Below are positions 1 through 63,156 of a stretch of DNA of 64,000 nucleotides, in pieces (within the stretch, counting starts at the first letter, position 1; each line of letters opens with the position of its first letter). Origin of the DNA: Deltaproteobacteria bacterium (lineage in GTDB: Bacteria > Myxococcota_A > Polyangia > JAAYKL01); NCBI GenBank assembly GCA_029565915.1, contig JAKQNG010000197.1:12759-76758 (forward strand). Reading direction: 5' to 3'. The translations under genes were made by a program, and so were the position numbers. A model generated the notes under the pieces. That model was not told the DNA's origin. It was given only the letters and a program-made list of their open reading frames with translations, and did no database searches.

Positions 1-155
1 CGATCGGCCTCCATGGCGCGGCGCAGGAAACGGCCATCCCCCAGCAGATGTTCCTGTCCCGCCATGTCTTCGATTCGAGACGGACGCATGCGATCGGCGA
101 GGGGCGTCATCCGGGGATCGCCCTTCACGGCTCTGCTGAACAGGTCTTCACTCAT
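1..155 (-). CDS. rarA: Replication-associated recombination protein A (RarA/MgsA), N-terminal fragment; gene continues beyond the window start
   Basis: Reverse translation from ATG (cat at 153-155) gives MSEDLFSRAVKGDPRMTPLADRMRPSRIEDMAGQEHLLGDGRFLRRAMEAD. This matches the conserved RarA N-terminus (PLAxRMRP...GQxHLL...RAxEA). Confidence 0.7.
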   Translation of the reverse strand, partial: MSEDLFSRAVKGDPRMTPLADRMRPSRIEDMAGQEHLLGDGRFLRRAMEAD

Positions 156-192
156 GAAACTCTCCCGCACGGCGGCGGAGGTGTCCCGGAGG

Positions 193-519
193 CTATTTCT
201 TCTTTGCCCGGGAAGGCGTTCGAGAAGGCCGCGCAACCGGTTCCGCGGGAGCCGGCGTCGACTGGACGGATTTCAGTTCGTCCTCCAGGCGACATACAGT
301 GCGCTTCAGCTCATCGATATCGGCGCGCGTGGCGAGTTCCATGAAGCCGGTAATCCGATCCCGGTTGCTGCGGATGCCCTCCGAGACTTTAATGGGCAGG
401 GACATCGCCTTTTCAATCATCACGCCAACCTGCTCGCTCTCCATGGCCTTTGCCACCAGCGGCGAGTTGAGCAGCTTGATGCCCTTTGCCACTACCTTTT
501 CCTTGAGTCCTTCCATCAT
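193..519 (-). CDS. Phasin-like / PHA granule-associated small coiled-coil protein (108 aa)
   Basis: Small K/E-rich alpha-helical protein ending in a basic tail (SRAKKK). It resembles the phasin/PHA synthesis regulator family. Family assignment is from memory, not searched. Confidence 0.4.
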   Translation of the reverse strand: MMEGLKEKVVAKGIKLLNSPLVAKAMESEQVGVMIEKAMSLPIKVSEGIRSNRDRITGFMELATRADIDELKRTVCRLEDELKSVQSTPAPAEPVARPSRTPSRAKKK

Positions 520-613
520 GATGTCACCTTGTCTTTCCGCTCACAGAATCGTTGGTATCGAACGCAGCGACAAATCTACCGAGTCGGGACCAATGTTGTC
601 AATGGAGAGTTCG

Positions 614-1615
614 CTACAACCCCAGCGGCAGCTGCACTGGTTGATGGCAGCGATGCACAGGAAGCGACGAACGCGCAAACGCCTCCACCATATCCGGACT
701 GCACCCGGGGCCCAGCATGATGGCGGATGCACCGGTACGGCGGGCGAAGGCCACGTATTCCCTGGCGGACTCCGGCGCGCAGAAGGCGAATTGATCACTG
801 TCGTCGCCGACGGCACCGGCCCGGCAAACCCTCACGTCGGCCCGCGTGCGGAACCGCGACACCTGAAAGGCGTGACGCAGAAACAGCACGACGCCGGATG
901 CGGGCCAGAGGCTCTCTTGTCTCAGAATGGCTCCGCTCCCGGACACCAGGGCTCCCGTGTCCCGCAGCATCTCGTAGGCACTGCGATGGGCATGGACGGG
1001 AACGGGCAGTTCGGACAGGATGGACACCACATCGTACAACGCCGTGCGACAGTCGCATACGACGGCAACGGCGATGGCAGACTGCTGTTCCATCACCCAA
1101 CGGACAAATTGCTTTTTCACTGTCCTTGGCGCCATGGTCCGCTCCGGTCGGGAGACCGCATCGAGCAGCAGCAGATCGCAGTGGACATTTACCGACGGTT
1201 CGCCGCTCAGGGGCTGGGACACGCGCAACCCGCCGCAGAATACAATCGTCCGCCCCTGCACGCGGATTTCCAGCATGGCCGAACCGGGGCCCCATCCGGC
1301 CGGCAACAGACGCAGATCCATGCGGCCCAGACGGAAGGGGCGATCATAGTCCACGGCCAGGGTGTCCACGTGGCGACGGCCGGATCGGAGGGCGGCCATC
1401 ACCAGGCCGGTGCCGATGAGGCGGGGCGCGTTGAGGGGCACCGCCTGATCGAGGTGCGCGCAGAAGAGCAATCCCGGATTTCTGGCGCCGACAAAGGCGA
1501 GGGGCGTTCCGGTCAGTTTGAACCCGCCGTCGCAGATGACGCCCCGGGGCAACCGATCCACTGCCTGAATGTCGATTAATTCTTTTGTCTCACCAATGTG
1601 TCGATTTTCGTCCAC
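614..1615 (-). CDS. Hypothetical protein, possibly degenerate metallo-beta-lactamase fold (333 aa)
   Basis: Long ORF with coding-like composition. It has weak MBL-like segments (LFCAHLDQA) but no clean HxHxDH motif. Confidence 0.3.
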   Translation of the reverse strand: MDENRHIGETKELIDIQAVDRLPRGVICDGGFKLTGTPLAFVGARNPGLLFCAHLDQAVPLNAPRLIGTGLVMAALRSGRRHVDTLAVDYDRPFRLGRMDLRLLPAGWGPGSAMLEIRVQGRTIVFCGGLRVSQPLSGEPSVNVHCDLLLLDAVSRPERTMAPRTVKKQFVRWVMEQQSAIAVAVVCDCRTALYDVVSILSELPVPVHAHRSAYEMLRDTGALVSGSGAILRQESLWPASGVVLFLRHAFQVSRFRTRADVRVCRAGAVGDDSDQFAFCAPESAREYVAFARRTGASAIMLGPGCSPDMVEAFARSSLPVHRCHQPVQLPLGL

Positions 1616-1774
1616 CGGTTTTCAGGCTAGGGAAGCGGCTGGTTATTGTCAAGAGGCGCAAAAAAGGGCCGGAGGCTGCGGTCACGGCGGATTCGAACGA
1701 CGGTTTCCGAGTCGATGATTTCACTCGCGATATCCTGCGTGTCGCTGGATGTACGGGTTGATTGGCGTTTCCGG

Positions 1775-1975
1775 TCAGTCCTGCGGCAGGTACTTTTTTT
1801 GTTGATACCGACGGGCGAAATCCAATCGTTCTTCTTCGGGCAGAGAGGTCATGAATGCCTTCCATCCGGGACACCAGTTGGCGTGCCAGCGCCAGAATCG
1901 GCCCGCAAGGGACCTGGGTGCTGTGTCATACTTTCTTCGGAGGGCACAGGTCCGGCAGTTGTGTTCGTCGCTCAT
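1775..1975 (-). CDS. Small Cys/Trp-containing hypothetical protein (66 aa)
   Basis: Short ORF 19 bp downstream of the GH3 gene on the same strand. It carries a CxxC...WC pattern. Function unknown. Confidence 0.3.
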   Translation of the reverse strand: MSDEHNCRTCALRRKYDTAPRSLAGRFWRWHANWCPGWKAFMTSLPEEERLDFARRYQQKKYLPQD

Positions 1976-1993
1976 CGGCAGGTCTCCTGTGGG

Positions 1994-3865
1994 CTACCAG
2001 GTCAGGCCGTAACCCAGGGGAAACAGGGGCTGGTCGTCCTTGTCTCCCTCGTTGATGGGAATCTGTTCCATGGCGGCGGGCCAAGAATGGGAAAGCTTTC
2101 CCGTGGGCGCCACATCGCCGAACAGGACATCCGCAATACCGTCCCCTTCGGAGCCGGGAAGCCATGCGGCAATGAAGCCGTCGGCCATGTCGATTTCGTC
2201 GGTGACGATCATCGGCCGTCCCGAGAACAGAATGACAACATAGGGCACGCCACTCTTTTCCATGTTCGCGATGGCCCGTCGATCCCCCTGGTCGAGGTGC
2301 AGGTCATCCCGATCGCCGTGCCATTCCGCATAGGGCATTTCTCCCACCACCACCACTCCCGCATCCGTCCGCCGCGAAATTCCCGAACCATCCAGGCTCC
2401 AGGTCACCCGCGCGCGCTTCTGCAGGGCCGAAAGAACCGTGGTGCCCTCGGTCCGACGTCCTTCGCCGGCCCAGGTCACCGTCCATCCGCCGCACTGGAT
2501 GGTCAAATCGTCGGCGCCGCTGCCGGCTACGTGAATCCGTGCCCCCGGCGTCAGCGGCAGCAGGCCGGCATTTTTCAGCACGACCAGCGACTTCGCCACT
2601 GCTTCCCGGGCCACCTGCCGATGACCGTCACAGCCCACTTTTGCCGTCAGCGCCGGATCCGTTTTCGGTGAATAGCCTTCATCGAACATGCCCATCTCGC
2701 ACTTCACCTGCAGAATTCGCCGCACCGCATCATCCAGCCGTTCCAGAGAAATCCGGTCCGGCACCGCGGACACCACCGCGGCGATGAATTCCCTGTAGCG
2801 ATCGGGCACCATCACCATGTCCACCCCCGCATTAATGGCGGTTTCCACATCCGAGGCAAAGCCGCCGGGCAGATCGTCAATGCCTTCCCAGTCGGAAATG
2901 ACAAACCCGGCGAAGCCCAGCTCGCCTTTCAGCACGTCTGTCAGCAGATGCTTTTCGCCGTGCATTTTTGTTCCCATGTAACTGCTGTAGGACACCATCA
3001 CTGTGCCGGCTCCGGCCGCAATCGCGGGAATGTACTGGTCCACCGCCAGTGCGCGGAACCGGGCCATGTCCAGCCGCACGTCCCCCCGGTCGAGAAATGC
3101 GTTGTCCATGTGTGACGTGCCGTACAGGGTGGCGCCATCGCCGGCGAAATGCTTGATGCTCGCCAGCACTGAGCCGGGGCTCCGCAGGGACGCGCCCTGT
3201 AACCCCTGCACGGCTGCCGTCCCATACAGAGCGGCCAGTTCCGGTGTTTCGCCAAAGGCCTCGTAGGTGCGGCCCCATCGTTCGTCCCGCGCGGCTGCGA
3301 GAACCGGTGCAAACGCCCAGTCCACACCGCTGCCGCGGGTTTCCAGTGCGGTGACCCGCGCGGCTTTTCGCACCAGGTCGGGATCTCCCGTGCACCCCAG
3401 ACCGATGTTGTGAGGGAATACCACCGCACCCGTGCTCTTGGCGTTTCCGTGCACGGCGTCGATGCCGAACAGCAGGGGAATGCCGGGTTCGGAGCGCAGG
3501 GCGATTTTTCTGACTTCATCGATCCAGGCAGCCCAGGCACCGGCGCTCAAATCGGTTCCGGGAAAATCCGTGCCGCCGGCCAGCATGGAACCGATGGCAT
3601 AGCGGGCCAGATCTTCCTTGTCCGTCAGATAACGCATGGCAACCTGGGTCATCTGACCCGCCTTCTGTTCGGTCGTCAGTCGGGCGAGGACCGATGCGGC
3701 CGTTTCCTTGCAGGCCGGGGACGGCGACCACGGTCCGTCACGCAAAGGAGACGGGAGTTCGTCTGCGAAGGGCGTCGTTGGCGCAGGCGACGGCTGCGTC
3801 CCGGGATTCGCACCACAGGACAGACACAGCAGGGACAGGAGTACAGCGGGGCGGATCAGGAACAT
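1994..3865 (-). CDS. Glycoside hydrolase family 3 (beta-glucosidase / beta-hexosaminidase-like) lipoprotein
   Basis: GH3 N-terminal-domain signature GFAGFVISDWEGI. Lipoprotein signal MFLIRPAVLLSLLCLSCG. An alternative upstream start lies at 3931. Confidence 0.85.
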   Translation of the reverse strand: MFLIRPAVLLSLLCLSCGANPGTQPSPAPTTPFADELPSPLRDGPWSPSPACKETAASVLARLTTEQKAGQMTQVAMRYLTDKEDLARYAIGSMLAGGTDFPGTDLSAGAWAAWIDEVRKIALRSEPGIPLLFGIDAVHGNAKSTGAVVFPHNIGLGCTGDPDLVRKAARVTALETRGSGVDWAFAPVLAAARDERWGRTYEAFGETPELAALYGTAAVQGLQGASLRSPGSVLASIKHFAGDGATLYGTSHMDNAFLDRGDVRLDMARFRALAVDQYIPAIAAGAGTVMVSYSSYMGTKMHGEKHLLTDVLKGELGFAGFVISDWEGIDDLPGGFASDVETAINAGVDMVMVPDRYREFIAAVVSAVPDRISLERLDDAVRRILQVKCEMGMFDEGYSPKTDPALTAKVGCDGHRQVAREAVAKSLVVLKNAGLLPLTPGARIHVAGSGADDLTIQCGGWTVTWAGEGRRTEGTTVLSALQKRARVTWSLDGSGISRRTDAGVVVVGEMPYAEWHGDRDDLHLDQGDRRAIANMEKSGVPYVVILFSGRPMIVTDEIDMADGFIAAWLPGSEGDGIADVLFGDVAPTGKLSHSWPAAMEQIPINEGDKDDQPLFPLGYGLTW

Positions 3866-54755: not shown

Positions 54756-55676
54756 CTATCGGGATTCGCTGTCCGGCGGGGCAGATTTCGGTCGGCGGAA
54801 GCGAATGATGCCTGCAACGCCCGCGAAGATGAGGGCGGCACTGACAAACGTGCTGCCGTGAACGGTTTCATCGAGAAAGAACCAGCCCAGAAACACGGCG
54901 ATAACGGGATTCACAAAGGCGTAGCTGACGGCCAGGGTGGGAGACAGCACCTGCAGGCAGAAAATATAGGCGGTAAAGGCGACCAGTCCGCCGAAGACGG
55001 TCACATAAACGAAGGCGATCCACGGGCCTCTCCCATCGGGCAGCACCGGTGTTTCGAAAATGGCCGTTGCCACGAGAAAGCCCACCGAGGCAATGAGCTG
55101 CTGCCATCCCGCGGAAGCGATGGACGAGACGGCAACGGGACGCCGGGCCTGCAGGACGGAGCCCAGGGACCAGAAGACCGGCGCACAGAAAAGCGCAATT
55201 ACCCGGCCGATATCCTGTGGCGGCACCCGCGACAGCGTGCTGCCGTTCAGAATGAGCAGTCCCGAAAATCCCAGCAGGAGAGATAGAATCAGCCCCGGGG
55301 ACGGGCGGCGGTGGTCGGCGATGGAATCGATGAGCGTCGTCCACAAAGGAAGGGTTCCCACGGACAGGGCCGCATAACCCGAGTCGATGCGCTGCAGAGA
55401 CCAGGTAATGAGGCCGTTTCCGCCGAGCCAGAGCAGCAGCCCGGCGGGCACGAGGATGACGAAATCCGCCAACCCCGGACGCACTGCTTCTTTGCGGAGA
55501 GCCGCAAATGCCAGCAGCAGGGCACCGGCGGCCGCCGTCCGCAGGGCCACCATGAAGAACGGCGAAAACCCGTCCTCTCCCACGGCGATGGACAGGGCCA
55601 GATAGGTGGAACTCCAGATGACATAAAGGGAAAACAGGGCGGCAAGGCCCTTGCGATGTGGAGGGACGAAGTTCAC
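54756..55676 (-). CDS. EamA/DMT-family transporter
   Basis: 10-TM duplicated EamA topology. Confidence 0.8.
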   Translation of the reverse strand: MNFVPPHRKGLAALFSLYVIWSSTYLALSIAVGEDGFSPFFMVALRTAAAGALLLAFAALRKEAVRPGLADFVILVPAGLLLWLGGNGLITWSLQRIDSGYAALSVGTLPLWTTLIDSIADHRRPSPGLILSLLLGFSGLLILNGSTLSRVPPQDIGRVIALFCAPVFWSLGSVLQARRPVAVSSIASAGWQQLIASVGFLVATAIFETPVLPDGRGPWIAFVYVTVFGGLVAFTAYIFCLQVLSPTLAVSYAFVNPVIAVFLGWFFLDETVHGSTFVSAALIFAGVAGIIRFRRPKSAPPDSESR

Positions 55677-55677
55677 G

Positions 55678-56118
55678 TCAGTTGTTGGACGCCTCGTCGG
55701 GCGGCCATTTCTGCTCCACCGGGTCCGTCACCATGCCAAGCTTGGGAATGCCTGCCTTCTTGACGATGGCCATCACCTGCACGACAAAGCCGTAGGGAAT
55801 GGATGCGTCCGCCTGCAGATACAGTTCGCCCTCCCGCTGGAGGCGGGCGTTGGAGATGAGCGTCTGTTCGAGCGCCTCATGGGGAATCCGGGTTTCGCCC
55901 AGAAACACGTTGCGTTGCCGGTCGATGGTCATGACGAGTTTGGATTCGTCAACTTCCATTGGCGCTGCCTCGGCTTTGGGCAGATCCAGTTCCACGCCAC
56001 GGTCCATCATGGGCGCTGTGATCATGAAGATAATGAGGAGCACCAGCATCACGTCCACCAGGGGCGTGATGTTGATGTCGCTCATGGGAGTGCCGGGGCC
56101 GTTACCGGACAGTGCCAT
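55678..56118 (-). CDS. ExbD/TolR-family biopolymer transport protein
   Basis: ITPLVDVMLVLLIIFMITAP signature and single TM. Confidence 0.85.
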   Translation of the reverse strand: MALSGNGPGTPMSDINITPLVDVMLVLLIIFMITAPMMDRGVELDLPKAEAAPMEVDESKLVMTIDRQRNVFLGETRIPHEALEQTLISNARLQREGELYLQADASIPYGFVVQVMAIVKKAGIPKLGMVTDPVEQKWPPDEASNN

Positions 56119-56134: not shown

Positions 56135-56884
56135 CTACTTGAAGAAGTGGCGTTTGACGATGTTCACGAAATCCGCCGAAAAGTTGTCCATCTCCGACGA
56201 CAGCACGCGGATGCGCCGGAGAAAGTAGTTATATGCGATCACCGCCGGAATGGCGGCCAGCAGGCCGATGGCCGTGGCAATGAGGGCCTCGGAAATGCCC
56301 TGGGATACAACCTCCATGCCCGCGGAGCCGCTGGCGCTGATCTGCATGAAGGAAATCATGATGCCGATGACAGTACCGAACAATCCCACAAAGGGTGCCG
56401 TCGATCCGATGGTGGCCAGAAAAGGCACCATGCTTTCGAGGTGCGTGACCTCGCTGGTCATGGCGCGACGCAGGGCCCGCTCCACGTTGCCGATGGCGCC
56501 GGCGCTGGTTTCATCCGACGTGGATTCGCTTTCCTTTTTCTGGGCCTTCAGCTTGGACAGCTCAATGTACCCCGCCTTGAACAACGACGAAATGGGGCTC
56601 CGTTCATATCGATCGGCGGCCTGGTAGATTTCGTCGAGGCGTTTGGAGGACCAGAAGATATTCAGGAAGCGGACGGTCTGTACCTGTGCGCGGCGGATCT
56701 GAATGAATTTGTAAACCACGATGAAAATGCCGATGAGGATGAACAGCACCAGCATCGCGATGACGCCTTTGACAATGGGGGACGCCTCCGCGATGAGCCG
56801 CATCATTTCAGCCATATTGCCGGCGGTGGCACCGCTTTTCCCGGGTACCGCACCGGCCAGGATGGTCGTAATCGTTTGATTCAT
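56135..56884 (-). CDS. MotA/TolQ/ExbB-family proton channel
   Basis: 3-TM pattern with the conserved C-terminal region (GLFGTVIGIMISF...EALIATAIGLLAAIPAVIAYN). Confidence 0.85.
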   Translation of the reverse strand: MNQTITTILAGAVPGKSGATAGNMAEMMRLIAEASPIVKGVIAMLVLFILIGIFIVVYKFIQIRRAQVQTVRFLNIFWSSKRLDEIYQAADRYERSPISSLFKAGYIELSKLKAQKKESESTSDETSAGAIGNVERALRRAMTSEVTHLESMVPFLATIGSTAPFVGLFGTVIGIMISFMQISASGSAGMEVVSQGISEALIATAIGLLAAIPAVIAYNYFLRRIRVLSSEMDNFSADFVNIVKRHFFK

Positions 56885-56998: not shown

Positions 56999-58582
56999 CT
57001 ATTTCCGCTTTTCCATGTGGGCGTCGTAACAGGACATGAAGTCGCGCACCGCCCGGCGGGGATCAATTTTCAGAAACCGGGCGAATTCCGCCACAAAGCC
57101 CCGCGTGTACACGGCGGCCGGCAGATCGTCGTACCGCTCGTCCTCGATGGCCTGGAGGTAGCGGATGGACACCTTGGCGCGGTTGGAGATGTCGAGGAGC
57201 TCCACGTTGTTTTCGCGCCGGACACGGGCGAGAAATGCGCCGTCGACAAAGTGATCGTCTGTCAGCATGACCTCGGGAAGGGACTCCTGCGTCGCCGCCA
57301 CCGTTCCCGCGATGGAACGCTGCCGGGCCGCTTCCGCGTCCTTGTCCCGATGAAAGCCGCCGGGAAACTGTTCCCGATCGTACCGCCGCCGCTCGAACCG
57401 ATCGAGCAGCCGTGCATGGGCCGTTTCCGCCTGCTTTGTAAAGTCGTCCTGCTCTTCCCGCGCACACGCACCCCGCAGAGAAATGCCCCCGGGGCCGAAC
57501 CACAGGCGGATTTGCCGGATGGCGCGGCGCACTTCCTCTTCGGAAGCGCCCGGATAGATTTCAAGCAGCTCATAGTAATTCTGGTCCTTTGTGGCCGGCG
57601 GCAGAGGCACCGGCGCCACGAGTTCCCGGAGCTCCAGGTTCATCAGGCGTCGGACCACCTGCTCCAGATCCTTACAGGCCCGGCTGCGGGCAAACTCGAT
57701 GAGCAGAGGACGCCCCCGCCGCTGCGCCAGCCAGACATTGTCGTCCCAGCCGATGGAACCCAGGAGGACCGGAATGAATCCGAGCCAGCGGGTTGCCGCA
57801 CTGACCATGGCCGCGCCGAGTTCATCGTCTTCCCGGATGCGGATCTGGTTCACCACCAGCAGAGGGTGAAACGTCCGGGACAGATCTGCCGCAATGCCGG
57901 CAGCGGGGTTCTCCAACTGCATCAGGCGTTCCACAATCCGGCGCGGTGTCAGCGGTTGGAAGCCGCGATTTGCATGGGCGAGAAGAGATCGGGCCGCGTC
58001 GTTTCCGGCAAGCTGTCCTTCGAGGAGGCAGGCCCATGCGGATGAAAGGAATCGCCATGTGCCCTCCACGGCGTCGGGCATGGGCATTGTCACGCAGACC
58101 CGGTAATCGGCAGCACAGAAGAGGTGAAGGGTGAAATCATCGAGGCGCATGGGCAGATCGACGATGACCACATCCGTCTCGACACTGCGGATGCCCCGCC
58201 ACAGCTGTTGCGCGCCGTCAGCGCCCCTCTCCGCGGCCAGGGCAATGAATCGGGTGTCCTGCAGCAGCTGGAGTCCGGCGATCCCGGTGGCCACCGCGGC
58301 CTTCGGAATATCGCAGAAATCCCCGTCAATGGAAAACGCCGTCGGCGCCGGCGGCTCACTGCCCAGCCAGGTATGCAGGCCGGGCGTATCCGGATCGGCG
58401 TCCACGAGGAGGACCTGCCGGCCGATCTGCGCCAGAAAGATACCGAGATTAACCGCTACCATGCTGGCGCCGACACCACCCCGGGCACCCCGGACGGCGA
58501 TGGTGCGTCGGGCCGGTCGCTGTGGCTCAGCCGAATGGGACAATGGCGCCTCCCCGGGGACGCGGGCATCCGCTCCCGTCAT
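56999..58582 (-). CDS. Degenerate ParA/MinD-fold (pseudo-ATPase?) – J-like domain (no HPD) – RodZ-type HTH fusion protein
   Basis: MinD/ParA fold with P-loop GARGGVGAS (both Walker-A lysines replaced), VLLVDADPD and TDVVIVDLP. Then NYYELLEIYPGASEEEVRRAIRQIRLWFGP (J-domain-like, with WFGP in place of HPD). The C-terminus is an HTH_25/RodZ-like helix-turn-helix. Start uncertain; the ORF extends to 58894. Confidence 0.55.
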   Translation of the reverse strand: MTGADARVPGEAPLSHSAEPQRPARRTIAVRGARGGVGASMVAVNLGIFLAQIGRQVLLVDADPDTPGLHTWLGSEPPAPTAFSIDGDFCDIPKAAVATGIAGLQLLQDTRFIALAAERGADGAQQLWRGIRSVETDVVIVDLPMRLDDFTLHLFCAADYRVCVTMPMPDAVEGTWRFLSSAWACLLEGQLAGNDAARSLLAHANRGFQPLTPRRIVERLMQLENPAAGIAADLSRTFHPLLVVNQIRIREDDELGAAMVSAATRWLGFIPVLLGSIGWDDNVWLAQRRGRPLLIEFARSRACKDLEQVVRRLMNLELRELVAPVPLPPATKDQNYYELLEIYPGASEEEVRRAIRQIRLWFGPGGISLRGACAREEQDDFTKQAETAHARLLDRFERRRYDREQFPGGFHRDKDAEAARQRSIAGTVAATQESLPEVMLTDDHFVDGAFLARVRRENNVELLDISNRAKVSIRYLQAIEDERYDDLPAAVYTRGFVAEFARFLKIDPRRAVRDFMSCYDAHMEKRK

Positions 58583-58667
58583 CGAAATTGACTGATTATC
58601 TAAACGAATTGAACTAGAATTCCAACCCCATAAGAGCCGGGGCAAACCGCCTCGACCGGAAAGACCG

Positions 58668-61607
58668 ATGACCGCAGAAGGCACCAATGTCGCACTGATC
58701 GCGGAGCTGCACGCCATCCTGAACGCATGGCGGTACCGCGCGATGATGCAGATCGCGTTATCCGGGGCAGGATGGATGGGCACCCTGTGCGTTGTCTTCC
58801 TTGCGCTATTTGTCTTCTCCATGGGTTGGTGGGGCGGCGGCGGGCTGGAGACAGCGGGATGGACGCTGTTTGCACTGCTCCTGTCGGCGGTCACACTGCT
58901 CCTCCTTCTGCTGCCCCTGTGGCAGGTGCGATCCCGTTTGCACCTGGCCCGGATGATCGGACGCCATCATCCCCAACAGCTCTCCCTTCTCGTCTCTGCC
59001 TGTGAGCTGGCCGCGGCGCCCCACAACAGCGCGTTTTCCAGCACCCTCATCGCGTGCCACCTGACGTGGACCATCCACTTCCTCAAATCGATTTCCGCCG
59101 ATGCTGTCTTTCCATCCCGCAGGATGATATCCGCCCTGTCTGCCCTCATCCTGAGCGGCCTCGGTACCTGGGCCTTCGCGGCCACCTTTCCGGACACCAT
59201 GGAGAGCGGATTCGAAACCCTCGTCAGTGAGCATCTGGTTCCTGCCGAAAGCGCGGAGGAAACGTCCGGCGATCCGATCATCGGCGATCTGAGCGCCAAG
59301 CTCCGGTACCCAGACTACCTGGCCCGGGACGAACGCGTATTCGAGTCTCTTTCCGGCGGCATCGAAGCGCCGGTCGGTACGCTGGTGGTACTGCAGGGGT
59401 CCTCCCTTGTGCCGGATGCCCTTGGCGGCGCCATCCGTCTGTCCAGCGGACAGACCTCCGAGCTGCTGCTGCTGCAGGATGGTCGGTTGACCGGCAGTTT
59501 CATCGTCGATGACATCGAATGGTTCGCCCTGTCGGTGTACGGGGCGGGCGGAACAGTCAACGGCCCTCGCCGATCGGTGACCGTGGAGCCGGACCAGAGC
59601 CCGTCCATCCGCTTGCTGTCCCCGACCGCCGAGCTGGAAGTGGAAGGCACCGGCGAGGTAGCCATTGAATTCGAGGCCAACGACGACCACGGCATCGGCC
59701 GCGTGGATCTGATCATCTCGGGCACCCCGGATCTCGAGATTCACCGGACCATCGCCCACGGCGCGGCGGATCTCACCCATCTGCGTTCGGGCTACCGGTG
59801 GCCGGCGGGCTCCCTGCAGCTCGATGATGTGTCCGATGTGGAACTCAGCCTGCGGGTCTACGATGACGACACCATCCGAGGGCCCAAATTCAGCACCTCG
59901 GAATCCGTGCGGGTCCAGGTGATGACCCCCGAAAACCGCCGCCGCGATTTGCTGGAGCGTCAGACAAAGATCCTCGATGGGCTGGTGGACCTGCTCGGTG
60001 AGCGACTGGAGCATCCGATACCCGCGGGCAGAGACGGGGACGACGCGGCAAGGGAACGGTTCATCCGCGTAAGAGGTCTCACCGAAGACCTGTTGAACAT
60101 GCTGGCCCGACTGACCTCCCGGTTGCCGGGCCATGATCCCGGGACGTCGGGTCTGCTGGACACCTATGATCGCATTCGACAGGACATCGCCAGCCAGCTG
60201 CTGTTCGAATCCCGCCACAATGAAATGCCCCTCGCTCCCTTCCGACGGCGGACAGATGCGGACAAGGTGACCGTTCGCCTGCTGGAACGGGCCATCTCCC
60301 AGGTGGACGGCATCATCCTGGATCAGCAGTTTTCCGGCCTCACCTCCGGTGGCGAACTGCTGGGGCTCCAGCAGGAGGAACTGCAGCGCCTGCTCCAGAT
60401 CTACGAAAAAGGTCGCTCGGAAACGTCGCGTCGGGGCATCCTCGCGGTGATCGAAAAAATGGAACGGGCGGCCGGTCGACTGGCCAATCTGGTCGCTAAG
60501 GTCCGCGGACAGGTCCCGGACGCACGGGTGGCGGCCGCAGGTTCCGACGCCGTGTCGCTGCAGGAAGAATTCCGCCGGTTGCGGGAATTACTGACCGCAG
60601 ACCGGGTGGACGAGGCAATGGCCCTTTCTTCGTCGCTGTCCCGAACCCTGCGGGAACTGATGACCTCGCTGGAAAGCGGACACCTGGCATTCCGCACGGA
60701 GCGGTTCGGCGAACAGGATGCCTTCATGCAGAACCTGCTCGAACGGATCTCGGCCATCGAGATTGACCAGCGGGAGCTGCGCCGCAACACCATCGGGCTG
60801 AGCCGGCAGTACAAGGAACGCCTGCTGGCGCTCATGAAGAGCGATATCGATCCCCTGGTAAAATCCCAGCTGCCGGTGGTACGGGACATGCGAACCCGTC
60901 TGGCATCTCTGCAGAAGAAGCGCGCCGGGAAAATCGACGCGGCAGACCTGCAGGAAATGGTCATCCGCATGGAATCGGTTCTGAAACAGGGCGACCTGGA
61001 TCAGACCCTGCAGGTCGCCGGGGAAATTGAACGGCGCCTGTCCGCGGCGGAGGCGTCTGAAGATGCGGATCACACATTGCGCAGCCTGCGTGGGGCGGCG
61101 GCGCAGATTGTCGAACGGATCAACCGGGCGTTTCCCGCACCGGCCCGGGTCTTCTCGGAATCGGATCGACGCCGACTGCGGAATCATGCGGGCTCCCAAC
61201 GGCACGTCGCGGGCCGGACGACGAAGCTGCGCGCCTGGATTGACGAACAGGAAAACCGGATGCAGTTTATTTCCGGCCGGGCAATGGGCGAGCTGGCGGA
61301 CGCCGCTGATGACATGCGAAAGGGCGCCTCCGCCCTGGAAGAACAGAACCTGGAAGAGGCGATCCGACGACAGACCGTGGCCCTGGACGCCCTTTCCGCC
61401 CTGCAACAGCACCTGCGCAGCGGAACGCGGCCGGTGCTGTTCGAATCCCGTCCGTCAGATGGGTCGCGACGGGTGGAAATTCCCACGGTGGAAGACTACG
61501 AAGTGCCCGGCGAGTTCCGGGAGGATATTCTGGAGGCCATGAAGGCCGGCGCGCCGGAGCACTACAAGGATGCCATCAAGAGGTATTATGAAACCCTCGT
61601 ACGCTGA
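58668..61607 (+). CDS. Large membrane protein: 4 N-terminal TMs plus a ~800-aa alpha-helical domain (DUF4175-like)
   Basis: Four N-terminal hydrophobic helices, a long predicted helical/coiled region, and a C-terminal motif VPGEFREDILEAMKAGAPEHYKDAIKRYYETL. I recall this from DUF4175-type proteins; not verified. Confidence 0.5.
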   Translation: MTAEGTNVALIAELHAILNAWRYRAMMQIALSGAGWMGTLCVVFLALFVFSMGWWGGGGLETAGWTLFALLLSAVTLLLLLLPLWQVRSRLHLARMIGRHHPQQLSLLVSACELAAAPHNSAFSSTLIACHLTWTIHFLKSISADAVFPSRRMISALSALILSGLGTWAFAATFPDTMESGFETLVSEHLVPAESAEETSGDPIIGDLSAKLRYPDYLARDERVFESLSGGIEAPVGTLVVLQGSSLVPDALGGAIRLSSGQTSELLLLQDGRLTGSFIVDDIEWFALSVYGAGGTVNGPRRSVTVEPDQSPSIRLLSPTAELEVEGTGEVAIEFEANDDHGIGRVDLIISGTPDLEIHRTIAHGAADLTHLRSGYRWPAGSLQLDDVSDVELSLRVYDDDTIRGPKFSTSESVRVQVMTPENRRRDLLERQTKILDGLVDLLGERLEHPIPAGRDGDDAARERFIRVRGLTEDLLNMLARLTSRLPGHDPGTSGLLDTYDRIRQDIASQLLFESRHNEMPLAPFRRRTDADKVTVRLLERAISQVDGIILDQQFSGLTSGGELLGLQQEELQRLLQIYEKGRSETSRRGILAVIEKMERAAGRLANLVAKVRGQVPDARVAAAGSDAVSLQEEFRRLRELLTADRVDEAMALSSSLSRTLRELMTSLESGHLAFRTERFGEQDAFMQNLLERISAIEIDQRELRRNTIGLSRQYKERLLALMKSDIDPLVKSQLPVVRDMRTRLASLQKKRAGKIDAADLQEMVIRMESVLKQGDLDQTLQVAGEIERRLSAAEASEDADHTLRSLRGAAAQIVERINRAFPAPARVFSESDRRRLRNHAGSQRHVAGRTTKLRAWIDEQENRMQFISGRAMGELADAADDMRKGASALEEQNLEEAIRRQTVALDALSALQQHLRSGTRPVLFESRPSDGSRRVEIPTVEDYEVPGEFREDILEAMKAGAPEHYKDAIKRYYETLVR

Positions 61608-63156
61608 TCGCCGCCTCCGGATGTTTGCAGTGGTGCTGGGGCTGGCCGCCGTCTGCCCACCAGCCGCGGCTGCGGAGGTCATCGCGGCGGAGCGATTGAT
61701 CGACGCCTATCGCCTGGAGGAAGCGGCCCGGCAGGTTCCCGGCGAGCGTGCAAAGACCGCTGCAGAGCTGTACGTACAGGGAAAATTCCTGTTCTTCTCC
61801 GGCGACTATGCCGGGGCGGAGCCGTTGCTCCTCCAGGCCATCGAACGCAACCGCACCGAGCTGGACTGGAAATACCTGCGGGAACAGGTCCGGATTTCTG
61901 CACAGATGACCGCCGCCATGGTGGAAACGCAATTCCCGGACGGGCGGATGGTGTTCTTTCACGAGGATGGACCGGATTCCCTGCTGGTGTCCTATGCCGC
62001 GGAAACCCTTCTGGCCCAGGGCCGCGCGTTGAAGGCGCTGCTGGGAGATGAGGTGCCGCAGATCCGCGTGTATATCGTGCCCACGGTGGAAAAGCTGTCA
62101 GACCTGTGCGGACTGCCGGTGGAACAGATCGAGGCCACCGGCACCGTGGCGGTGACCCGCTACAACCGCATCATGCTGCTCTCGCCCCGGGCCGTCCTCA
62201 ACGGATATCCCTGGCTCGACACCCTGGCCCACGAGCTGGTTCACATGAGCGTGTCTCGGGTTTCCATGAACGAAGCGCCCATCTGGCTCCACGAGGGCGT
62301 GGCAAAAATTCTGGAGTCCCGCTGGCGGGACGGCCTCTCCGGCAACATGCCCCCGGAATCCGCGTGGCTGCTGGACCGGGCCGCGCGGGAAGGTCGACTG
62401 CTGCCCCTGCGGAAGTTTCACCCCTCCGTGTCCTGGCTGCCCAGTCAGGAAGATGCGGCCCTCGCCTACGCCCAGGTGCAGAGTTTTCTCGCGTGGCTGG
62501 AGAACCGCTATTTGAACAACAATGGGCTCCGCCATCTGCTGGAGCGACTCGCCGGAGGGCGGACCGTGGAGGCGGTGCTGAAGGAGCTCACCGGGTACGA
62601 GATGAAAAAACTGTACCGCTGGTGGCAGGAGCAGCTGCGGGGCACGCGGCAGGCCCCTGCGGAGATGGTGCCCTTGATGAAACGCCGCTACCTGAAAGGG
62701 GAATCCGCACCTCACGGGCTGGCGGATGCGGCTCTGTCCGACGATGCCCGCCGCTACCTGCGAATCGGCGACCTGCTGCGCCTGCGCGGTCACACGGCGG
62801 CGGCGGTGGAGGAATACTCCCTCGCCATGCAGGGCGCCGAAGGCATGGTGCCGGACGTGTTCGACCGGTTGACGGGGGCTCTGCTGGAGCTGCAGCGCAA
62901 CGACGAAGCGCTTTCCATTCTGGAAAAGGCGCAGGCGTATTACCCCTGGCATTCACCGGTGTTTCTCCACCTGGCGCAGGTGTTCATCCGTCGCGGCGAT
63001 CGAACGCGGGCAGAGGCGCATCTGCGGCAGGTCATCGCCCTCAACCCGTTTCACCCCGACGTGCACTGTCTGCTGGCCGACGTGTACCGGGGTCACGACG
63101 AAAAGCGGGCGGCCATGGAAAAAGAACACTGCCTGCTGATCGGAAAGAAGAACTGA
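61588..63156 (+). CDS. Secreted Peptidase_MA-like zinc metalloprotease with C-terminal TPR repeats
   Basis: Signal peptide. HELVH...(19 aa)...WLHEGVAKIL matches an HExxH + downstream Glu (Peptidase_MA_2-like) arrangement. The C-terminal third is TPR-like. Overlaps the upstream gene end. Confidence 0.55.
   Translation: MKPSYADRRLRMFAVVLGLAAVCPPAAAAEVIAAERLIDAYRLEEAARQVPGERAKTAAELYVQGKFLFFSGDYAGAEPLLLQAIERNRTELDWKYLREQVRISAQMTAAMVETQFPDGRMVFFHEDGPDSLLVSYAAETLLAQGRALKALLGDEVPQIRVYIVPTVEKLSDLCGLPVEQIEATGTVAVTRYNRIMLLSPRAVLNGYPWLDTLAHELVHMSVSRVSMNEAPIWLHEGVAKILESRWRDGLSGNMPPESAWLLDRAAREGRLLPLRKFHPSVSWLPSQEDAALAYAQVQSFLAWLENRYLNNNGLRHLLERLAGGRTVEAVLKELTGYEMKKLYRWWQEQLRGTRQAPAEMVPLMKRRYLKGESAPHGLADAALSDDARRYLRIGDLLRLRGHTAAAVEEYSLAMQGAEGMVPDVFDRLTGALLELQRNDEALSILEKAQAYYPWHSPVFLHLAQVFIRRGDRTRAEAHLRQVIALNPFHPDVHCLLADVYRGHDEKRAAMEKEHCLLIGKKN

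Follow-up and report, generated by a model that had tools for sequence, protein, structure and literature searches.

A myxococcotal protein family that joins a ParA/MinD-type ATPase domain with a degenerate Walker A motif to an HPD-less J-like domain and a RodZ-type helix-turn-helix

Results

A three-domain family of ParA/MinD-type proteins

We analysed a 64,000-nucleotide stretch of DNA (the window) from a Deltaproteobacteria bacterium (assembly GCA_029565915.1, contig JAKQNG010000197.1, positions 12,759 to 76,758 of the forward strand), and in it a minus-strand gene whose product of 527 amino acids (aa), called the query below, carries a ParA/MinD-fold ATPase domain, a J-like domain without the His-Pro-Asp (HPD) motif, and a RodZ-type helix-turn-helix (HTH) domain. 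The query represents an uncharacterised branch of the ParA/MinD ATPases with a combination of domains that has not been described before. All three domains are conserved across 234 members, and in a genome scan the family was confined to Myxococcota. An earlier note, made from the letters of this stretch, had read the same three parts in the gene and had recognised the arrangement from no characterised protein. Both points hold, since the three domains are supported by sequence comparison and by predicted structure, and no characterised protein with a MinD, J-like and HTH_25 architecture was found in the PDB, Pfam, NCBIfam, the source annotations or the literature.

Relatives were collected by a word-indexed search, which gave 94 clusters, by an exhaustive hidden Markov model search of 1.8 billion representatives, in which dozens of full-length three-domain representatives ranked highest, and by a scan of one genome per GTDB species, in which at least 277 relatives were confirmed among 600 stretches. 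Pooling and de-duplication left 234 distinct full-length members, on which the family counts below are based. The 80 loci that were kept all come from metagenome-assembled genomes (MAGs) labelled Myxococcota, Polyangia, Polyangiaceae, Sandaracinaceae, Kofleriaceae or "Deltaproteobacteria".

Loss of the ATP-binding lysine in a conserved nucleotide pocket

Residues 25-315 are predicted to adopt the MinD/ParA alpha/beta (SIMIBI) fold, with a helical insertion at about residues 169-237. The full-length AlphaFold model (AF2) had a predicted local distance difference test (pLDDT) score of 89.3 and a predicted template modelling (pTM) score of 0.76, and pLDDT exceeded 90 across most of the ATPase domain. 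When this model was compared with solved structures by Foldseek, FleN, FlhG, MinD and Soj were the top matches (template modelling (TM) scores to target, 0.70-0.84), and BcsQ was also found, in agreement with the MinD fold proposed earlier. The domain also matched the Pfam families ParA (E-value, 2.3e-10), AAA_31 (2.9e-10) and CbiA (1.2e-8), as well as CBP_BcsQ over the P-loop, and phmmer against the PDB returned FleN (5j1j; 4e-10), Soj (1e-9) and MinD. The sole hydrophobic window, residues 42-60, is a core helix/strand of the ATPase fold; thus, the protein has no membrane segment and is soluble.

The query's deviant Walker A motif reads GARGGVGAS, with Arg34 at the position of the trans-acting "signature" Lys and Ala39 at the position of the cis-acting, ATP-binding Lys; the Gly residues and Ser40 are retained. 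The motifs quoted here all translate exactly at the coordinates in Table 1, and the switch I (VLLVDADPD) and Walker B (DVVIVDLP) segments are intact, as the earlier note had said. Across the family, the cis Lys is present in 121 of the 234 members, and in the other 113 it is replaced by A (48), T (24), S (13), R (10), V (8), H (5) or further residues that include C. The signature position holds K in 142 members and R in 79. The Ser/Thr that follows the cis Lys is kept in 231/234, Asp61 of switch I in 229/234, and Asp142 of Walker B in 226/234. The second switch I Asp, Asp63, is present in 149/234, being kept in 83% of Lys-containing members but in 42% of those without Lys, so that catalytic decay tracks the loss of the cis Lys.

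The query falls in a monophyletic group of 65 members (median pairwise identity, 54%), and the cis Lys is absent from every one of them. The earlier statement that both Walker A lysines are lost is therefore right for the query copy, but does not extend to its clade, where only the loss of the cis Lys is universal: the signature residue is K in 89% of the clade, and Arg34 is a minority state, found in a protein that itself retains Asp63. Within this clade, Gly36, Gly38, Ser40 and Asp137 are conserved in 100% of members, Asp61 in 98%, Gly35 in 97%, and Met41 and Asp142 in 95% each, compared with a domain mean of 0.65. Fitch parsimony on a neighbour-joining tree gave at least 21 changes between K and other residues at the cis position, a rough estimate, as it comes from a distance tree. 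Judged from these alignments, the nucleotide pocket is under strong purifying selection, except at the cis Lys and the second switch I Asp, and the strong conservation of the Gly-rich loop although the Lys is gone argues that nucleotide is still bound. One further position separates the two groups: Arg214, in the helical insertion (codon 57941-57943, minus strand), is present in 97% of the Lys-less clade and in 8% of the Lys-containing members, and could be a compensating or a clade-specific functional residue. Arg288 and Arg289 are likewise more conserved in the Lys-less clade.

A RodZ-type HTH with both MreB-contact aromatics

The HTH segment at the C-terminus had only three sequence matches in the PDB, all of them RodZ proteins, namely 3fym (Staphylococcus aureus YmfM), 4gqm (Chlamydia CT009) and 2wus_R (Thermotoga maritima RodZ, from its co-crystal with MreB). 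Foldseek superimposed a separate model of the C-terminal part of the protein (pLDDT 83) on 2wus_R with a TM-score of 0.80 and a root mean square deviation of 1.9 Å. In the alignment with 2wus_R, Tyr492 is opposite Tyr53 of T. maritima RodZ and Phe496 is opposite Tyr57, corresponding to Phe60 and Tyr64 of the E. coli protein; these RodZ residues lie at the interface with MreB subdomain IIA, and their mutation weakens MreB binding (PMC6946637). Position 492 is Y or F in 234/234 members and position 496 is F or Y in 233/234. On sequence grounds, then, the domain is an HTH_25 domain that carries both MreB-contact aromatics, as in RodZ, and we consider this match the strongest functional lead, suggesting that the protein may dock on MreB. 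A search with the J-like and HTH module alone returned no RodZ-like membrane proteins, only fragments and short gene calls of the same family.

A J-domain fold without the HPD motif

Residues 333-405 are predicted to form a four-helix J-domain fold. The C-terminal model matched J-domains in Foldseek with TM-scores of 0.72-0.87 (0.83 for DnaJ in its complex with DnaK, 5nro_B), and a profile of the C-terminal 206 residues matched solved J-domains with an E-value of 9e-10. The query alone scored 18.9 bits against Pfam DnaJ (PF00226), for which the cut-off is 27.8, and all 43 of the 43 aligned family members matched this model at E≤0.01 (best, 4.3e-8). The pTM of the full-length model suggests that the J-like domain packs somewhat on the ATPase domain.

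Helices II and III are connected by a lengthened loop. In the profile alignment, Phe362-Gly363-Pro364-Gly365 is placed opposite the Y-H-P-D of DnaJ and is followed by a six-residue insertion, so that the WFGP seen earlier at this site proved to be a true replacement, and the HPD His is present in none of the 234 members. The residue in its place is G (81), A (50), Q (46), S (22) or D (13) in most of them, with typical motifs such as WFGxDG, LYQPGS and IYGPES. J-domains need the HPD His to stimulate the ATPase of Hsp70. Canonical co-chaperone activity is therefore excluded family-wide, and, by the defining motif of that group (GPG in the query), the protein would not be counted as an Hsp40. Other positions of the domain are invariant in the 43-sequence alignment (Glu349, Arg352, Arg353, Ala388, Leu392, Asp394, Arg398 and Tyr401), which argues that the J-like domain is functional in some other way.

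Relatives, annotation and the start of the gene

Among the close relatives, 19 representatives carry the same ATPase domain joined to HTH_25 by a disordered linker, without the J-like domain, and several of these have a canonical KGGVGKS motif (P0160, P0181, P0178, P0179, P0195, P0201 and P0216). Thus, the ATPase and HTH domains form the conserved core of the protein, to which one large branch has the J-like domain as an accessory. ATPase-only proteins of 300-350 aa, which have canonical KGGxGK[ST] and score 250-300 bits against the family profile, are placed still closer to the root. The family has only unspecific names in its source annotations ("P-loop NTPase", "AAA family ATPase", "helix-turn-helix domain-containing protein" and a KO-derived "FlhG") and in its cluster names, and the Joint Genome Institute (JGI) labels many family members "FlhG". 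No NCBIfam model reached its cut-off with the query, and all ParA-family models that it matched scored below theirs. A paper on Bdellovibrio ParA1-3 gave no domain information tying those proteins to the 527-aa family.

The reading frame of the query runs from an ATG at 58582 to a stop at 56999. A longer in-frame reading to 58894 (631 aa) would run into the divergent gene, whose start is at 58668; the homologs have lengths of 513-527 aa, and their alignment begins about 25 residues before the first beta-strand. These observations place the start at the ATG at 58582, for a protein of 527 aa. The public JGI gene call for the identical contig (P0001) begins instead at Met41 (487 aa), as do those at loci L004 and L005. 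This start removes the N-terminal 40 codons (window 58462-58582), and with them the first strand and the entire P-loop; as a result, the precomputed domains list the HTH only. The Met41 start, an artefact of annotation, conceals the ATPase domain.

Genomic neighbourhood

Downstream of the gene in the window are a TolQ-like and a TolR-like gene, and a terminator scan of the 114-bp gap before the TolQ-like gene found no terminator-like site. The earlier note had called this pair exbB-exbD. The products belong to the MotA/ExbB and ExbD families, but the best scores are to TolQ (TIGR02796, 218.1 bits; cut-off, 221) and TolR (TIGR02801, 122.6 bits; cut-off, 127.3), not to ExbB and ExbD. The pair continues into a gene for an EamA transporter rather than into tolA-tolB-pal, and is therefore an orphan motor pair of the TolQR/ExbBD/AglRQ type; OsmC-like and LolA-like genes lie beyond the transporter. 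It had also been suggested that the pair might always follow the gene, and this is not the case. Of about 13 distinct close-clade loci, 6 have the pair within about 4 kb downstream of the gene: it is directly adjacent in 4 (the window, L011, L013 and L016), about 1 kb away in L018 and about 4 kb away in L001. It is absent within the flanks of the remaining close-clade loci and is not adjacent in other clades. A TolQ-like gene 43-53% identical to that of the window is found about 6 kb upstream, on the opposite strand and at locus positions of about 20-3000, in L054, L064, L066, L067, L073, L079 and L084, several of which are from Sandaracinaceae MAGs. In L066 and L067, a weak ExbD/TolR match stands beside it. 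In the related locus L008, a gene containing TonB_C is located at the upstream edge, and no TolQ match was seen. A loose regional linkage with Tol-type genes therefore recurs across clades.

On the other side, a 979-aa membrane protein is encoded divergently, and a promoter scan of the 85-bp region shared by the two genes found no sigma-70 consensus promoter. In this protein, the N-terminal part has transmembrane segments and the C-terminal part is DUF4175-like; it also has an Ig-like stretch, and no NCBIfam match. Its gene is always accompanied by one for a TPR-containing peptidase, with which it overlaps by 38 bp. This divergent pair was found in 14 loci (the window, L001, L006, L010-L013, L015, L016, L018, L019, L021, L030 and the distant L072), and in the query clade it is a steadier neighbour than TolQ/TolR.

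Neighbours differ in other clades. In 38 loci of the neighbour clustering, mostly with RGGVGKS-type P-loops, the gene meets or overlaps at its 3' end a gene for a PMT_2 membrane glycosyltransferase (for example, at 11596-13047 of L003, from a Polyangiaceae MAG, with an ArnT/PMT-like product of about 483 aa), suggesting translational coupling. An HNH protein of about 180-190 aa is encoded directly upstream, on the same strand, in 21 loci (L008, 9400-9936; L090, 7318-7899; L091, 858-1439; and 18 further loci, with hosts such as Sandaracinaceae and Polyangia MAGs). These HNH proteins are 50-59% identical between clades, and the gene stands upstream both of three-domain genes of one clade and of relatives with ATPase and HTH_25 domains and no J-like domain (L090, L091), so that this pairing is conserved more deeply than that with any other neighbour; it is absent from the query-clade loci and from the window. 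The genes maf and yggS are downstream in about 18 loci of other clades, with proC beyond. In the loci whose genes were listed, mreB, dnaK, min and flagellar genes were not seen, and no dnaJ gene was adjacent. The common theme of these neighbourhoods is housekeeping of the cell-envelope or division type, not a fixed operon partner.

Table 1. Features of the query gene and its neighbours, in window coordinates.
Feature	Position	Strand	Basis
Gene for the ParA/MinD-like, J-like and RodZ-type HTH protein	56999..58582	-	Complete open reading frame, 527 aa; homolog alignment supports start
MinD/ParA-fold (SIMIBI) domain, aa 25-315	57638..58510	-	Pfam, PDB phmmer, AF2, Foldseek
Degenerate deviant Walker A, GARGGVGAS	58463..58489	-	Arg34 for signature Lys, Ala39 for ATP-binding Lys
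Switch I, VLLVDADPD (Asp61, Asp63)	58388..58414	-	Translation
Walker B, DVVIVDLP (Asp137, Asp142)	58151..58174	-	Translation
J-like domain, aa 333-405, four predicted helices	57368..57586	-	Profile vs PDB, Foldseek, Pfam DnaJ
FGPG (W-FGPG) at Y-H-P-D position	57488..57499	-	Alignment to T. thermophilus DnaJ2
Flexible linker, aa 406-446, between J-like and HTH domains	57245..57367	-	pLDDT 41-50 in both models
RodZ-type HTH_25 domain, aa 447-513	57044..57244	-	Pfam HTH_25 (E 4.7e-18), PDB, Foldseek
YTRGF in HTH (Tyr492, Phe496)	57095..57109	-	Gapless alignment to 2wus_R
Divergent intergenic region, 85 bp, shared with 979-aa gene	58583..58667	.	AT-richer spacer
TolQ-like MotA/ExbB-family gene, 114 bp downstream	56135..56884	-	Pfam MotA_ExbB (1e-34)
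TolR-like ExbD-family gene	55678..56118	-	Pfam ExbD (2e-29)
EamA transporter gene, 1 bp after TolR-like gene	54756-55676	-	Pfam
979-aa membrane protein, divergent	58668..61607	+	Pfam DUF4175 (1e-10, C-terminal part), Big_7 (weak); transmembrane windows
TPR and Peptidase_MA_2 protein, N-terminal signal or anchor	61570..63156	+	Pfam, hydropathy, synteny

Discussion

We suggest, while giving it somewhat less than an even chance, that the query descends from a MinD/ParA-type ATPase and works as a soluble adaptor, which as an ATP-locked or slow dimer docks on MreB and serves the organisation of the cell envelope. In such a protein, the ATPase domain would still bind ATP and form the usual nucleotide-sandwich dimer, as BcsQ does; hydrolysis would be very slow, or would take place only upon the action of a partner, again as in BcsQ, and the dimer would therefore be a long-lived hub and not a fast oscillator. 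A tether of about 40 residues would carry the RodZ-type HTH of each protomer to an MreB filament, which would make the dimer a bivalent MreB-binding module. The J-like domain, unable to stimulate Hsp70 by way of HPD, would offer a surface for protein-protein interaction and, together with the ATPase surface, would recruit partners. The process served may be envelope organisation or morphogenesis (elongation, division or a Tol/Agl-type motor), as the envelope-related neighbours (TolQ/TolR-like, DUF4175-like and secreted TPR-peptidase proteins) suggest. The non-hydrolysing scaffold predicted in the earlier note is too strong a description, because the rest of the pocket is 95-100% conserved in the Lys-less clade, BcsQ binds ATP, and TadZ supplies its lysine from elsewhere; by analogy with these proteins, the domain is probably better described as ATP-binding and slow or locked.

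Several observations weigh against this adaptor. Canonical GK[ST] is retained in roughly half of the members, which may be ordinary ATPases, so that one mechanism for the whole family is uncertain, and Arg214 could make up for the lost Lys. The HTH_25 domain is of the XRE superfamily, and the YxxGF motif typifies this Pfam family as such, so that its conservation is no proof of MreB binding; Lys36 of T. maritima RodZ, which we take to be a third contact, aligns to a Tyr in the 527-aa protein. The HTH of RodZ is N-terminal and membrane-anchored, whereas that of the query is C-terminal on a soluble protein. Finally, gene neighbourhoods vary between clades, and among the loci with genes listed, mreB was not seen next to any member.

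If the HTH were to bind DNA instead, whether specifically, as an autoregulator, or non-specifically, the protein would be part of a nucleoid-bound or DNA-bound ParA-type system that positions cargo on the nucleoid or regulates transcription, for example that of the divergent 979-aa operon. Type Ia ParA/SopA proteins carry an N-terminal HTH and are autoregulatory. The XRE-superfamily fold of HTH_25, together with weaker matches to HTH_19, HTH_31, HTH_3, SinR, ClgR and DdrO, would fit such a role, as would the 85-bp intergenic region shared with the conserved neighbour operon. However, RodZ proteins are by far the best matches of this HTH, both MreB-contact aromatics are invariant (234/234 and 233/234), the divergent operon is missing in most clades that retain the protein, and the RodZ HTH has been reported not to bind DNA (PMC6946637). 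We therefore regard a DNA-binding role as unlikely. Doubtful to a similar degree is a still-dynamic ParA/MinD ATPase in which a basic residue elsewhere replaces the cis Lys, so that the protein, like others of its family, would keep cycling and give rise to gradients or patterns and would not be a static hub. Key lysines are located elsewhere in some members of the ATPase family (PMC11407121), as in TadZ (PMC10482377), and Arg214, with its 97% against 8% distribution, and the better conserved Arg288 and Arg289 are candidates for such a residue; the signature Lys (89% of the clade), Asp61 of switch I and Walker B are retained. In contrast, Arg214 sits in a helical insertion, the second switch I Asp decays with the Lys, the clades share no conserved gene for a candidate partner or activator, and the Lys was lost in many lineages and its place taken by various residues (A, T, S, V, C, H, R), a pattern that fits a relaxed need for catalysis better than it fits one specific compensation. 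These explanations are not all mutually exclusive, as a compensated ATPase could still dock on MreB.

A chaperone-linked factor seems improbable to us. Its J-like domain would act on DnaK or on a true J-protein, by recruitment or regulation that does not use HPD, and chaperone activity would thereby reach a site associated with MreB or the envelope. The fold and the sequence relationship to J-domains are real, with helices II and III conserved down to invariant residues, and there is precedent in Pam16/Tim16, an HPD-less J-like regulator that acts on Pam18. However, the HPD His is found in 0/234 members, helices II and III are connected by a lengthened loop, the J-like domain is accessory, given the relatives that have ATPase and HTH domains without it, and neither dnaK nor dnaJ is adjacent in the listed loci. 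The last candidate, a decaying paralog or pseudogene of a MinD/FlhG-type gene, is effectively refuted. It could be suspected from the substitution of both Walker A lysines in the query, from the N-terminally truncated public gene call and from the JGI label "FlhG", but the frame is intact, the AF2 model is confident, and all three domains are conserved in 234 members; moreover, the Lys-less state is fixed in a clade of 65 whose neighbouring pocket residues are strongly conserved, the listed loci hold no flagellar genes, and the NCBIfam scores for MinD, Ssd and the ParA family are far below cut-off. The earlier note had named orthologs with an intact KGGxGKT and an HPD J-domain as the mark of a decayed copy, and the closest orthologs have no such combination.

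ParA/MinD ATPases (also called A/D ATPases) are general-purpose positioning engines of bacterial cells. To our knowledge, all characterised members pattern on the nucleoid or on the membrane, and the HTH of RodZ is the one domain known to grip MreB. A conserved branch of these ATPases fused to an MreB-gripping domain would thus link them with the actin-like cytoskeleton. More speculatively, and with little confidence, we raise the possibility of a third kind of ParA/MinD system, which would use MreB as its positioning matrix through a captured RodZ head, with the ATPase frozen as an ATP-locked dimer in whole lineages, to organise envelope machines (the elongasome, the divisome or Tol/Agl-type motors) along MreB in Myxococcota, where it may have assumed some of the role of RodZ. 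These bacteria are known for gliding motility, multicellularity and an unusual control of division (PomXYZ, with no Min system), and Myxococcus xanthus has five A/D ATPases of which only two have been studied, according to a review (PMC11407121). The family also amounts to a natural experiment, in which the catalytic Lys was lost at least about 21 times and the remaining ATP pocket was kept, and it allows one to test when an A/D ATPase becomes, like BcsQ, a scaffold that is ATP-locked. The family further provides a bacterial case in which a J-domain fold persists without HPD. The names now given to these proteins ("FlhG", "helix-turn-helix domain-containing protein", "P-loop NTPase") mislead or say little, and some gene calls, that of the query among them, truncate the P-loop.

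Membership in FlhG, MinD, Ssd, BcsQ or RodZ can be rejected, as the NCBIfam scores are far under the cut-offs and the architecture and context do not fit. The likeness to PomZ, PadC and FlhG drawn in the earlier note likewise serves as an analogy and not as a statement of membership, with ParA-family NCBIfam models under cut-off. FlhG/FleN and MinD provide the closest solved structures and sequences for the ATPase domain (FleN, 5j1j, E 4e-10; TM-score, 0.84). They combine a canonical KGGxGK[ST] with an amphipathic membrane helix at the C-terminus and act with the partners FlhF/FleQ or MinC/MinE, whereas the query has neither the cis Lys nor a membrane helix, and continues after the ATPase domain into a Pro-rich linker and the J-like domain; it scores about 31 bits against the minD models of NCBIfam (cut-offs above 200). 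RodZ shares the HTH_25 fold and both MreB-contact aromatics, but has its HTH at the N-terminus, a single transmembrane helix and a periplasmic C-terminal domain, unlike the query with its C-terminal HTH and no transmembrane segment (rodZ model, 32.7 bits; cut-off, 375). HPD-less J folds serve as structural or regulatory modules in ARC6/Ftn2/ZipN of cyanobacterial and plastid division, of which ARC6/ZipN acts on a cytoskeletal division protein, and in Pam16/Tim16. These proteins are likened to the query by the J fold alone, being membrane-anchored and having no ATPase or HTH domain.

Closer parallels are found among ParA/MinD-family proteins with atypical Walker A usage. TadZ/CpaE and actinobacterial Ssd are polar or septal landmarks of this family, and the best NCBIfam match of the query P-loop region is to Ssd (TIGR03815; E 7e-13, 48.5 bits; cut-off, 154). 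In TadZ, the lysine is supplied from another helix (PMC10482377), and in some other members of the family the key lysines are also found elsewhere (PMC11407121). Unlike the query, TadZ/CpaE and Ssd have an N-terminal receiver-like domain and are encoded in tad/cpa pilus loci; there are no pilus genes near the query. BcsQ, of E. coli cellulose secretion, has the same fold (Foldseek 6yb5, 6yay, 6yar) and the same pair of Walker A substitutions, with Arg10 for the trans Lys and a small residue, Thr15, for the cis Lys. It holds ATP in a stable sandwich dimer, has weak ATPase activity, requires the dimer for function, and acts as an assembly or positioning factor (PMC7840130). It differs from the query in having lost the switch I catalytic Asp (Cys39), where the query keeps Asp61 and Asp63, and in being a single-domain protein, without J-like or HTH domains, that works with BcsR, BcsE and BcsA; the query scores 37 bits against TIGR03371 (BcsQ; cut-off, 158). 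By analogy, the query would work most like BcsQ or the TadZ-type landmark A/D ATPases with an atypical Walker A motif.

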